From contig KZ538525.1 in assembly GCA_000934665.2 (NCBI GenBank), forward strand, positions 1 to 64,000: 64,000 bases of DNA, read 5' to 3'. Below, piece by piece: positions 38,501-50,500 of the stretch; the first letter of the stretch is position 1; each line of letters begins with the position of its first letter. Source of the stretch: Catajapyx aquilonaris. Lineage: Eukaryota. Under the pieces are notes generated by a model that did no database searches, was not told the origin of the DNA, and was given only the letters and a program-made list of their open reading frames with translations. Made by a program: the position numbers and the translations under genes.

Positions 38501-41500
38501 CAGGAGGATAAAAGAATGGCAACCCTGCATCGTTCATTCAGCTTAGGACCAATAGCAGCGTCCGTCCATTTTGGCGGGAACGCTCCCGATTGGTCAGTTG
38601 CTCAAAAAGTGGCGGGAAGAGCGCGGCAGCGTTGCCATATATCATCTTCATCGCTTGTTAACCACAATTAACTTACCTTTTTTTTCAGTACCCTTCGCCA
38701 GAATGGGACACGGTGACCCCAGAGGCGAAAAACCTAATCAACCAGATGCTGACGGTGAACCCTGCCAAGAGAATCACCGCCTCAGAAGCTCTGAAGCATC
38801 CATGGATTTGCGTGAGTTTGGCTTGTGGCAATAAACACATAACTACTGGGCCTTTTCTCCTCGAACGTTATTATTAAACTTCGCCTTTTTTATTTATTTT
38901 TTAAACTATTTTTCGTTCTTCATTTTCAGCAACGGGAGCGTGTGGCTTCTGTTGTGCACAGGCAAGAGACTGTGGACTGCTTGAAGAAATTCAACGCGCG
39001 GCGCAAACTGAAGGTAAAAAAAAACTACTAAGTCTATTTTCGATGTGGCGAGACATGTCTCTTTGTCGCCAAAGAGTACATGGCGATACCAAGTCGTGAT
39101 AAGTAATCAGGGAATAAAGCAGAAAGCTGTTGCATAATTTTTCTGAGCCGTGTAATGGTCTCAGAAGGCTAATTTGAATAAGTGTCAACAACCTTTACTG
39201 GGCTCTTTGTAAGAGCTTATGTAATTTTTGTGCATCTTCCAGGTCATTACTCGTACGAAGAGTAATGACCTGGACTATGCACAAAAATTACATAAGTGTA
39301 TGTATACACGTTGTCACTGCTAAAACTGATTGTTTCTATTTGTTGGTTCGACTATTGCCTGAAATTGACCCCGCAAAAATTTTAACTGGCGTTGGTTTCC
39401 ATTAATTTTATCTTGTTGTTTAACCTCGGCTTCGCATTGGTTTGGATATGTGGCCAGTCGGCCTATACATATTTTTGTGCCATTGATTTTGTTCCCTGAT
39501 TACATCAATAGAGGCTTGTTAACAGCAGCCCTCTGGCTCCAGCCCTTCATTTTGCGGGTTATTTACAGCAACTTCAACCCTATTGTTTTTGTTAATGCCT
39601 ATTTTTTTCTCGGTTTATTTACAGGGCGCCATCCTCACTACCATGCTTGCAACTCGCAACTTTTCCAGTAAGTACGACGGTCATGGTAAGTACCCCCGCC
39701 CTATGATGCAAGCTGGCCCCAAACGACTAGTTTCTGGTAGAGCCCACATGCAAGTTGGCCAACATATTGATTGCCAATTAAGTATAAAAACTTACCATCT
39801 ATATTCACATGCTGCCACAAAGCATAAAAACTCTACCATGGAATCTCCAGGATTGGGGTTGATAATTATGTGTCAGAGTGCACTCTTCTGTGGAATTTCA
39901 GAAGTGCTCTTCTATCTTTTGTGTTCCCACTGTTATAGTAGATTTATCTGGTTGTTTATTTGCGTGTTCACTATTTCCACTTCTACACCACTACGTGTGT
40001 CACTATTAATTTATTTTGTAAATGTCACTGTTACTTTTAGATAGTTCTCACCTCTCACGTACCGTACATTTGTGGACCGAAAAAAAAAAAAACGGTGGTT
40101 GACAAATTGTTGTGGTCTATTCACCTATCCACCTCTAGTACTGCATATAATTGTATTGTTTTTATAATTGTGTTGAATGCCTGCAATATCTCCGACTGCT
40201 TCACTAAGTGTCACTAGTTTCACTCTCACGCTTTAGCCGTCCACCGCAACACTATTGGTGTAATAACTATTTTTAAAAAGTTCACCATTTAATAGTGACA
40301 AATATGTCGATCGGTTATAACCATGTTAAATTTTAATACGTACAGCAGTGCATCAATCAATAATTTTGTTTGCGTTAATGGGATAGAATTATAACCGAAT
40401 ACGTGCGCTGTGTAGTGAAATTTTAATTCGCACATTTGCCACCATGACACCTTCATTAAGTGTAATAATTGCAGCCGAAATTTTAGCGCTGTTTTTTTGT
40501 ACCGCTTATATATTGCAAAAACACACAACACGGCACGAGTGTTTTACTCACTTTTTTGCACATGTGACGTCTCAACAATCCGCGGTGGGAATATAATAAG
40601 ACAGAAGCAACACAACTCTGTTACAGAAGTGCCTTTTTTTGATTCGTCCAGCTTTCCGGGCGGGGGTCAAAGGTTTAAAGGTTAAAACAAGCCCTCAATA
40701 CATTTTTTTCCCCCCTCATTATTTTGTTCGTTAACAAAATACTTACCCTCTCCTGTATTTGCATACAGTTTTTTACAAAGGGAAGCTAACCAACCAGCTA
40801 GAATACAGATAGAGACACTGTCAAAATTTGTTTAGTGTCAAAGGTCACCGGTTGCAATACTCTATCGCCTCTTTTTTTCTCTCTCTTTCTCAATGATTCC
40901 AGCTCGTTGGACATGTCTGTTTGTGGTCTGTGTCGTAGACTATAAATGGCGTACTATTTTTGGTGTGTGGTATTCCGATGCATCGTAGCCTCTCACTCTT
41001 TTTCCTCCCAAGGAGTTGTTTTTAGATAGATGGTCCTCCCTATCTTTCTATATCCGGTCACAAATAATAATATAAAAAATATTTTTCAAAAGAAATCTAT
41101 TTCTTGGCTGTCACCCTGATCATTCCTTGATGTCAGTTGGGGAGAATGCCAATTAATGGATTAAATTTTATTGTTATTATTATTACCAGTACCGTAGTAT
41201 TTTTTTTTTCTCTTGATCATTGTTGACCGTCTGCTTGACCAGCACATGTAGTTTTTTCCTGTCCTCTTGTAATCTCATAATGTTACGTGCTTGTAGTCGG
41301 TAAGTCGCTTCCTGTGAGTAGTGATTGCCCTTTTGTCTCTTTTTTGCACTGGTAAAACTCCAATGTTGCTACTTCCTGCACTGCAGAAAGTGGTAAGAAC
41401 GAGCTACAAACAAGGATTTCTTCCCCTTTTTTTACTTAAGATGAGCCTCTCTCTTCTTATATACAATATTTTTGTCGAATTTTTTTTCCCCCCTGTCCTC

Positions 41501-47500: not shown

Positions 47501-50500
47501 AAATATTAGTTACTTAAAAATCTTCATCTGTCTATACTATTTTAACTGGAAACCAAATAACTGTGTCAATATACGAGAAACAAAAGTTTAAATTTCAATA
47601 TTTACATTTTTCATTTTGTCTATTCCGGTAATAATGTCTTAGCAACATTCACAGTTCACTGTAAACCACATCATGTACGCTTAATAATGTTTATGTCAGT
47701 CCCTGAAAAAAATAAGACCAATTATTCCCACAACCTGTCCTTCCTTACAAAGCAGTAAGTCCGGATGAAATGTGTGTAAATCACATTTTTCTTTCATATG
47801 CCAAAAAATGTGTTTCAATACATGAAATTGAAACACACTTAATTTTCCTGCAACACTCATCTACAGGTGGGCCAGAATTTCACTAAATCGACGAATCATA
47901 TATCAAAAGCCAGACCTCCTTCCCAAAGAGAGTGGCCATTCGAAAGGGATTTGCAAATTTTTTTGAAAAAATAAATTAATACCAAAAAGTACCCCGACAA
48001 CAGATATGATTTTATATGGAAAAAAAAAAACATTTCGCGGGGCGGCGGCGGGTTTTTAACATATTTTTATTCTCTTCCCGGACAACCCCCCACAAAACCT
48101 CCCTTCCAGACTTAAGAATGTGCGCTGGCAAGACCTGCTGCTCTCAACTGTCCACCAATTCCTCCGTGTGTACAGGTAAGGCACACGAGTAACAGGGTCT
48201 TCTAAGCGATATATCCTACAGGTCTGACCCTCAAAAAAAAAAATTCCGTGGAGCTGTAGGATTTTTTGAAGAAAAAAAAAGCCCTCCAAACCTCCCCTAT
48301 CCTTAAACTCGGTCAATAATTATTTTAAAAAATTAAAAAGAAATCCTTACTATCCAACTTTCACCTTCGGGTCACTCGAGTGTGAGCAGCATGTGGCATT
48401 GGCGCACTTATTGTCATTTACTCTACTGTTCAAACTATCAAAACCCTCTGGTTTTTTCACACACTCTTCACATCCTCTGGATCCAACTCCTCTAAACCTT
48501 TAATTTTTCACCTTGTTTACTTATAATATTATATAACAATTATAATATTATATATATCTTCCAAAATAAATAAAATAAGAGGAACCTATGGAATCTTCCT
48601 TGGCTTGCCGCTCATGTAGTTACTGCTTCTTGGCTATCCTTAACTATCCACCTCCTTGAAAATATACTATCAGTTATTTTTTTTTTAAAAAAAATTAAAA
48701 ACTATATATTCCCCCTTCAATCACTGCAAGATAAATGCTGTGATTTTTCTATTCTCTCCAGTGTATATAGCAAAATATACAGTGTATAGCATAGTGACAT
48801 TAGAAGCATGACAGTAGAACAACAAGCAACACATAAACTGTTGTGAGTAGTTTAGTTATCGATGTCACGTTTTTATGAGGGATACAGTATGTACGGATGC
48901 ACACTAGTGACATACCGGTACGACAAAAATGTGAAAACATAGACAGATTTTTTTTTGAGGGTATCATTTGTGTTGAATTCAATACACACATGCACGTACT
49001 GGAATCGGTGACCAGTTCGTTCCCTTGTGTTGTAATATTTTATTATTTAATCCAAATATATTTTTACTTATTTATACGTGTGCATCCGTAACTTACAAGC
49101 CCTCTGGTCGCGCTTAGATGAAAAAAAATTATATATACATAAAACGCATTGCGAATCCACAGAACATGTTAGTTACAACACTGCCCACATTCATTTTATT
49201 TTTTGAGATTTTCTGTTGGCATGCCGTAAGTGGCACCGCATGACCGTTTTTTGGAGAGAGAGAAAATATATTGAAAGTTTTTCAGTAGAAATAGGTATTG
49301 TCTCCCTTAACACAAGCTTGTCATGCAACACAACACCGTGACTTTCGATAATTCGTAAAAAGAAAAATTATTGTGCGAGTTCAAATTGCAATTATTTTTT
49401 TTTGGAAAAAAATGCGCGGTAATTCATTGGGAGGGATGATTTTCAGTTGTTGTCAAATTCACATTGCGGTATATTTATTAGATACATAACAGTTTAGGCA
49501 ACATAGCTAGACGATGGCTAACAAAATAATTAATGGGCTTCACCAAGTTTTACAAACAAAAAAAAAGTTTTATCTGTGAGATCCCCAATGCAGCAGGTGA
49601 AAATGTAAGTATAGGAAAGCATTGAAATTAACATTAACAGTGCTAATATGTCGCAATTGGTGCTTACAATCCGTCTCTATTTATTTAAAAAAAATACAAA
49701 AAATAAAAAAGAACCAATCGCAGGTTCAGGATATGAGCGATTGATTGGTCATAAACTGTAATGATTCCCGTCTTCTTCTTTTTCTTTGTTTTCCAGCACG
49801 CAAACAGGAGATTATAAAAATAACAGAACAACTCATTGATGCCATCAACACCGGCGATTTCGAAGCTTACACGTGAGTACAGGCCCCTTTCCAGTGATTA
49901 ATAGTTGAGTCGAGAACATGATGCAGTCTCATCCAGTGTTGCCATTAATTCAACATTCAGTAATTATTACATCAAAACGGCAACACCTCTTGAACCATCT
50001 GATGTTTTAGACTAAACTATAGCTTAGAAAGCTTGGTTAACAAAAGTGAGTTAATATCAAGAATCAAGCGATATGTTTTTGTTACTTCTCACTGCAGGAA
50101 AATATGTGACCCTCACATGACTGCCTTTGAACCTGAGGCCCTAGGTAATTTAGTGGAAGGGATGGATTTCCACAAGTTTTACTTTGATCATGGTAACTAT
50201 GTCTTCAGCACTTTTTATTTCTTTCTCCTTGTTTTTCTTTTTCCGATTTTTTTTGGATATATAACTTTATCCCTTTCCCCCCTTTTTTTAAAAAAACTAT
50301 CTAAATATTGTACCGCTTTGTTCGTATGTCATGTTGCATGTTGATGACTTTTTTAAAACGTGTGTAAACTTCCCTCCTTTTTAAATGTCTAATTATGTTT
50401 TTTCCCAGTTTGTTGGTTTTTTTTCTATGCTCATACGTTCGTGTGTTTTTTTAAAGAATGCAATAAAAATAACTAGCGTTCTTGGTGGATGTTCAAATAT

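Follow-up and report, generated by a model that had tools for sequence, protein, structure and literature searches.

Candidate splice modules in the CaMKII linker of Catajapyx aquilonaris and their counterparts among insect inserts

The 64,000 nucleotides (nt) of Catajapyx aquilonaris DNA described here (positions 1 to 64,000 of contig KZ538525.1 in assembly GCA_000934665.2, referred to as a whole as the window) carry a CaMKII gene on the plus strand, whose exons, as located by tblastn of the Cimex CaMKII protein P0045 against the window, run from 11405 to 51635, those of the kinase part aligning to Cimex CaMKII residues 20-301. All five conserved exons tested score above the curated Pfam cut-offs, the two kinase exons matching Pkinase (PF00069) with 43 and 35.1 bits against a cut-off of 31.7 and the three hub exons matching CaMKII_AD (PF08332) with 44.6-56.8 bits against 22.1; the hub exons matching CaMKII_AD are those 3' of hub exon 1. 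A regulatory segment with the calmodulin (CaM)-binding sequence lies between kinase and linker, represented by two peptides that match P0045 at 96% and 83%. The named best protein matches to the central, or core, linker exon are CaMKII isoforms of Hymenoptera, Hemiptera, a beetle and stick insects, and the gene is thus regarded as one of insect type; very probably it is single-copy, and the stretch between the CaM-binding exon and the hub (association domain) its ordinary variable region, or linker. An earlier interpretation of the same letters, made without database searches (the sequence-only reading), had proposed a combinatorial linker of eight optional, frame-neutral splice units here. 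The modular, frame-neutral linker appears to be real, five of the eight units being, as judged from sequence comparison, homologous to modules spliced in relatives and matched by insect modules, the 165/111-nt unit among them only probably so, while the other three are at best plausible. The flanking exons, the five units and the core exon are as follows, with the letters A, B and E being those of the sequence-only reading.

39625 to 39667, plus strand: CaM-binding exon, which leaves in phase 1 (sequence and tblastn to P0045)
39668 to 39685, plus strand: 18-nt alternative 5' splice-site extension, giving SKYDGH and then G; tandem GTAAGT donors, the second at 39686
41387 to 41392, plus strand: 6-nt microexon AAAGTG, giving RNFS-KS-G-RSII; best-scoring short candidate
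42592 to 42681, plus strand: 90-nt core linker exon, found in all relatives seen (1277 protein matches; 31 metagenome loci)
44611 to 44673, plus strand: 63-nt cassette corresponding to Insert 1 (A), with an RTST site of the R-x-x-S/T type; matched by tblastn
46117 to 46281, plus strand: 165-nt cassette rich in proline and alanine (P/A-rich; B), with an alternative acceptor at 46171 that gives 111 nt; probable Insert 3 homologue
48110 to 48175, plus strand: 66-nt cassette corresponding to Insert 2 (E), with strong splice sites and a gtaagg donor
49797 to 49872, plus strand: hub exon 1, which enters in phase 1 (sequence and tblastn)

The limits first proposed for the region are exact: the CaM-binding exon begins with base 39625, and hub exon 1 closes with base 49872. 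The units themselves had been given by size and without positions, and their coordinates were rebuilt from those sizes. For the second 66-nt unit, 47426-47491 is the likeliest place, as this segment lies between the 93-nt unit and 48110; taken as unit D, it fits the earlier remark that A and E are like Drosophila inserts, which makes 44611 unit A and 48110 unit E. Seven of the eight units were recovered in this way and are indeed multiples of 3 nt, in phase 1-1 and stop-free, but the 3-nt microexon was not identifiable, and the list was incomplete in that it left out the 90-nt core exon lying among the units. When core exon skipping and both cassette B acceptors were included, all 384 unit combinations enumerated held the frame into the hub. 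Frame neutrality alone is nevertheless no evidence, because 583 chance segments have the same properties, as given by a scan of 39660-49790 for AG..GT segments of 3-300 nt that are multiples of 3, in phase 1-1 and stop-free. Six of these 583 also pass rough splice-site thresholds, namely 41387-41392, 42592-42681, 44611-44673, 47062-47154 together with a sub-part of it, and 48110-48175.

The comparison with relatives was made through the core exon, which, used as a read-through query, found the 1277 proteins, and whose alignment drew 31 metagenome loci, some of them genomic and some resembling spliced mRNA (178,729 bases in total); it drew no relative from the genome contig collection. At the DNA level, positions 39001-52000 matched these 31 loci in exons only. 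By homology, the linker is predicted to contain the 90-nt core exon together with an optional Insert 1 (63 nt) and an optional Insert 2 (66 nt). The first of these inserts is matched by tblastn in 9 of the 31 loci, the closest being L008 (85% over 20 amino acids (aa), E 7e-8), in which the exon is also 63 nt long. Its AG/GT borders and phase 1-1 are kept in the genomic loci L008, L010, L015, L019 and L021, at lengths of 57-69 nt, and it is joined directly after the core exon in the mRNA-like L025, L029 and L030. The accessible part of a report on three planthopper species describes an Insert 1 of 20 aa bearing the CaM-kinase consensus site RSST (PMC6627886), and a by-eye comparison of its sequence, EDKIKGGVDRSSTVIAKDPE, with the 63-nt cassette finds 15/20 positions in common; a six-frame translation of the window has the motif STVIAK at one place, within this cassette. 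The planthopper Insert 2, ELRIVCPNKTISQISTNSYGS, agrees by eye with the 48110 cassette at 11/21 positions with two one-residue gaps (PMC6627886, as far as accessible), and the motif SQ[IL]STNS is again found once in the six-frame translation, in the 48110 cassette. An Insert-2-like match in L010 (CCSAEITNDS) was rejected, lying amid stop codons and without splice sites; the blocks shared by L010 and L015 are those of the core exon and Insert 1 only. Inserts 1 and 2 of planthoppers are described as homologous to Drosophila Inserts 1 and 2 (PMC6627886, accessible part), in keeping with the earlier remark on A and E.

Upstream of the core exon, the homology of the sequences points to a junction of three states, which would run directly to the core (S), through the 6-nt microexon (KSG) or from the 18-nt downstream donor (SKYDGHG). 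Among 14 aligned insect isoforms from Nasonia, Cotesia, Cimex and Monomorium, the sequence after RNFS is direct (S or T) in six, KS-G in two and SKY...(G/A) in six, the latter reading SKYEAPG, SKYDAQA, SKYDTDG or SKYDTQG. The KSG form belongs to Nasonia isoforms P0102 and P0107 and is seen also in the mRNA-like contig L005. Planthopper cDNAs, in the accessible part of the report, have the forms S, KSG and SKYDVQG, with KS as an exon of its own (exon 12), SKYDVQ as part of the alternative exon 11 (11b) and a motif, KSG or SKYDVQG, located where the association domain begins (PMC6627886). The microexon pattern AG-A[AG]AG[TC]G-GT[AG] is found on the plus strand of the window at 41387 alone, and in the loci (178,729 bases) at one place, which lies in L008, 4.8 kilobases (kb) upstream of its core exon and in near-identical context. 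L005, a contig of 4498 nt, contains the core linker exon twice (21-107 and 1041-1127), maybe as an assembly artefact or a rearranged transcript. Within a more distant group of contigs, there is a 6-nt difference at the place of the insect KSG microexon, with another sequence, L022 reading RNFS-T-KSM... and L025-L030 RNFS-IGA-KSM....

It is very unlikely that any 3-nt microexon of this linker is real, and the signals for one are probably due to chance, with 34 AG-NNN-GT sites in the linker region. The 3-nt sub-form AAA of the microexon (41387-41389, donor GTGGTA) was rejected, as it would give KS-R, found in no relative, and the 3-nt sites 41297-41299 and 49594-49596 were set aside as being without support. 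The one-residue differences among the 14 isoforms fall in the hub (FYFDN[V/A]VLGKN), none in the linker. A distant, mRNA-like contig, L014 (538-756), reads RNFS-K-GRSII, 3 nt longer than the direct junction, and no site in the window would yield this product; the same contig has a GGS insertion within its core exon. Hub variation among the insect isoforms is seen at alignment columns ~408-410 (FYFDN with or without V/A; FYFDH-GKM versus -V), and of the Cimex isoforms P0046 and P0045, one has 31 extra residues inserted into its kinase N-lobe.

For cassette B, the sequence-only reading had proposed a lineage-specific unit, which it probably is not. The distant group of relatives, comprised of contigs L022-L031 and the genomic loci L019 and L021, displays several linker forms, in which what comes after the core exon is an Insert-1-like module, a long P/A-rich module (...ATAMKSVLAGFGAGVSKPP...), the two together or a different module (...SMQAIVGLTSVPSKY), and in which a DVKMNHVR... 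module precedes the hub. L021 carries them as individual exons, arranged core, Insert-1-like, Insert-3-like, DVKMNHVR and hub; nothing in the window matches the DVKMNHVR... module of these distant relatives. Insert-3-like modules are present in L022, L024, L029, L030 and L031, and the mRNA-like L024, L025, L029 and L030 carry Insert 1 alone, the Insert-3-like module alone, or both together. The transcript-like L023, L029 and L030 run past the Insert-3-like module into stop-rich sequence before the hub, which looks like intron retention. Cassette B comes directly after Insert 1 and is collinear with the Insert-3-like exon of L019 and L021, and with the like module in mRNA-like contigs. It lies in an 88-codon open frame that is in the kinase frame, and its guanine-cytosine (GC) content of 0.65 is ~4 standard deviations (SD) over that of the intron (0.37 +/- 0.07) and higher than in any of the 870 background windows. 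The motifs that it has in common with modules in relatives' mRNA-like contigs are ...M.K.LAG... and K-P, and its end, ...LNAIVPRLQ(G), can be compared by eye with the end of planthopper Insert 3, ...LSAVLLQGAQ, an insert described in the accessible text as 50-64 aa long, rich in proline, alanine and threonine (P/A/T-rich) and containing ...SFGAGAKP... (PMC6627886). Cassette B is held, with good confidence, to be a real cassette, and it is probably the counterpart of Insert 3.

Two further units, which the sequence-only reading lettered C and, probably, D, lie between B and Insert 2.

47062 to 47154, plus strand: 93-nt candidate cassette (C), with a strong acceptor and a GTAAGT donor; decoys of like quality at ~0.2-1 per 10 kb
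47426 to 47491, plus strand: 66-nt candidate (probably D), with a weak acceptor, passing loose thresholds only

The 93-nt unit has the best splice sites among all candidates and passes the strict filter, decoys on the minus strand passing its filters at 3 per 64 kb (loose) and 1 per 64 kb (strict). It is polar and purine-rich, its AT skew being at the 95th percentile of intron windows, and has no homologue in the 31 loci, in Pfam or in genome contigs. Its status as a unit is thus plausible on its splice sites but lacks a homologue, and it is best regarded as a tentative candidate for a further real cassette, the balance leaning slightly the other way. The 47426-47491 segment is unlikely to be a real cassette and is probably a product of chance, its signals, like those of the 3-nt microexon, not rising clearly above chance; the loose thresholds it needs admit 13 decoys across 64 kb of minus strand. 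It is equal in length to 48110-48175, begins with the same six bases, shares its gtaagg donor and is identical to it in register at 26 of the 66 bases, a value reached by only 0.7% of intron windows; this likeness may mark an old exon duplication. It is doubtful that the two are lineage-own cassettes beyond the three known inserts, with 47426-47491 as a diverged copy of the Insert 2 exon and possibly its alternative; were this so, the linker repertoire of this CaMKII would be richer than that of any insect described so far. A related and similarly improbable explanation takes both as real and as together forming the counterpart of planthopper Insert 4, 47426-47491 again having come from the Insert 2 exon by tandem duplication. 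The planthopper inserts number four, are 20-81 aa long and derive from five alternate exons, to which the five candidate cassettes in the window could correspond, and Insert 4 is itself built of two exons and differs in each species (PMC6627886, accessible part); the strict-filter splice sites and purine-rich character of the 93-nt unit, and the features shared by 47426-47491 and 48110-48175, would be accommodated as well. Neither unit, however, is matched in the 31 loci, the acceptor of 47426-47491 is weak, and by eye no candidate bears any likeness to the Insert 4 sequences in Table 2 of that report.

Several results weigh against the assignment of the cassettes to known inserts. The likeness to the planthopper inserts was judged by eye and not computed, the read-through query of the protein collection with Insert 1 gave three candidates of which none scored, and Insert 2 had no tblastn match in any of the 31 loci; the search of relatives with the cassette peptides, first put forward as a check on all of them, favoured Insert 1 but gave nothing for Insert 2 or the 93-nt unit and for B a best E-value of 0.047. 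Cassette B as query returned no match in 1.84 billion protein representatives, none among 305 candidates from longer proteins and none among 593 stretches in metagenome contigs, and it matches no Pfam family. With a hidden Markov model (HMM) of the relatives' whole Insert-3-like modules, the frame of B ranks third with E = 2. A 15-residue motif from three relatives did place B first of 127,906 six-frame positions (77 versus 65 for the next), but this test is not independent, because it was likeness to B that decided which segments were used. The weak acceptor of the 165-nt form also counts against B, and the B donor is mediocre. The failed searches, the indifferent splice sites and the non-significant HMM result would all be expected of a GC-rich island in the intron that is open in frame by chance and forms no exon. 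Such an island is nonetheless quite unlikely, as it would have to account for 88 open codons in the kinase frame, for a GC content so far over the intron background, for a position after Insert 1 equivalent to that of the Insert-3-like exon in L019 and L021, and for motifs shared with the relatives' expressed modules along with an Insert-3-like end.

In planthoppers, 11, 13 and 9 CaMKII cDNA forms were cloned from the three species, the three junction forms never occurring together in one clone and the insert sets cloned being none, 1, 1+2, 3, 1+3 and 4 only (PMC6627886, accessible part). The full proposal of eight independent, real modules giving as many as 256 linkers, B, C and D being lineage-specific, is hardly credible, for although all units are frame-neutral, every enumerated combination is open and relatives do combine modules (L024, L025, L029, L030), the region also holds 583 chance segments and 34 AG-NNN-GT sites, the 64-kb minus strand has 13 decoys equal in quality to 47426-47491, other arthropods have cassettes that B resembles, and the planthoppers, as reported in the accessible text, make do with mutually exclusive junctions, few insert sets and 9-13 isoforms per species. 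The figure of 256 is therefore an arithmetic ceiling, and the isoforms actually made likely number ~10-20.

In the reading preferred here, that of an ordinary insect-type linker with optional modules, alternative splicing would build a disordered tether from the CaM-binding segment to the hub out of symmetric phase 1-1 units, and this species would splice the homologous units as its relatives do. Length and charge pattern of disordered CaMKII linkers have been tied to Ca2+/CaM sensitivity and to how activating and inhibitory autophosphorylation are balanced, and human hippocampal CaMKII transcripts are reported as heterogeneous (PMC7141811, PMC12474881, 10.1101/721589 for the former and 10.1101/721589 for the latter, each in its accessible part). 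By analogy with these other CaMKIIs, linker length and charge may set the Ca2+/CaM sensitivity and autophosphorylation balance of the enzyme in C. aquilonaris, to which Insert 1 would add an R-x-x-S/T site. The modular linker is old, because Insert 1, and probably the Insert-3-like module, keep their phase in several arthropod contigs. The value of the locus is chiefly one of annotation, in that the junction microexon and the alternative donor are given coordinates in this genome, as are Inserts 1, 2 and 3-like; a 6-nt exon is often missed by gene predictors. No new question about CaMKII is raised; the splicing of the linker, and what it does to activation, are subjects of existing study.

Other features of the window are gaps and repeats. 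The intron between kinase exons contains an assembly gap of 270 N (28790-29059), a run of 8 N lies at 427-434, and isolated N occur at 8 more places. A 37-nt unit is repeated in tandem within a CaMKII intron (31038-31266; 6.2 copies, 96% matches), a 72-nt tandem repeat occupies 32761-32986 (3.2 copies, 76% matches) with similar open frames downstream to ~33480, seen as repeated peptide-like frames on both strands, and a perfect (TAA)25 microsatellite is found at 34047-34122.

The vertebrate CAMK2A/B/G/D genes likewise encode a disordered linker from optional symmetric exons. They are four paralogous genes. In C. aquilonaris the segment KKGDG...KESTDSS...DDDIK is one fused 90-nt exon, with the optional cassettes after it. 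Vertebrate genes place optional exons within the KKGDG...DDDIK segment. The closest known arrangement is that of the planthoppers, and the architecture is not new, the same set of modules being known from these insects in the accessible account, and most of the optional units having matches reported in fruit flies and cockroach too; as the arrangement has already been described in insects, its novelty is limited, and the combinatorial idea was right in kind but inflated. A single gene spliced in its variable region is known to give up to nine isoforms in Drosophila and five in cockroach (Griffith and Greenspan 1993; Ohsako et al. 1993; Taillebois et al. 2013, cited in PMC6627886). Common to the planthoppers and C. 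aquilonaris, so far as the accessible account allows the comparison, are the S, KSG (a tiny separate exon) and SKYD..G (an alternative 5' site) junctions, an Insert 1 of ~20 aa with R-x-x-S/T, an Insert 2 of ~21 aa and, only probably so in C. aquilonaris, a long P/A/T-rich Insert 3, as well as five alternate exons between the regulatory segment and the hub, which in C. aquilonaris are partly candidates. The differences are that the extension reads SKYDGH in C. aquilonaris, that its Insert 1 is one residue longer and has RTST in place of RSST, that its Insert 2 has extra cysteines, and that the likeness of its Insert-3-like cassette is only loose, an alternative acceptor lying inside that cassette; no counterpart of planthopper Insert 4 was recognised by eye in this linker, and there are two extra candidates of 93 nt and 66 nt.

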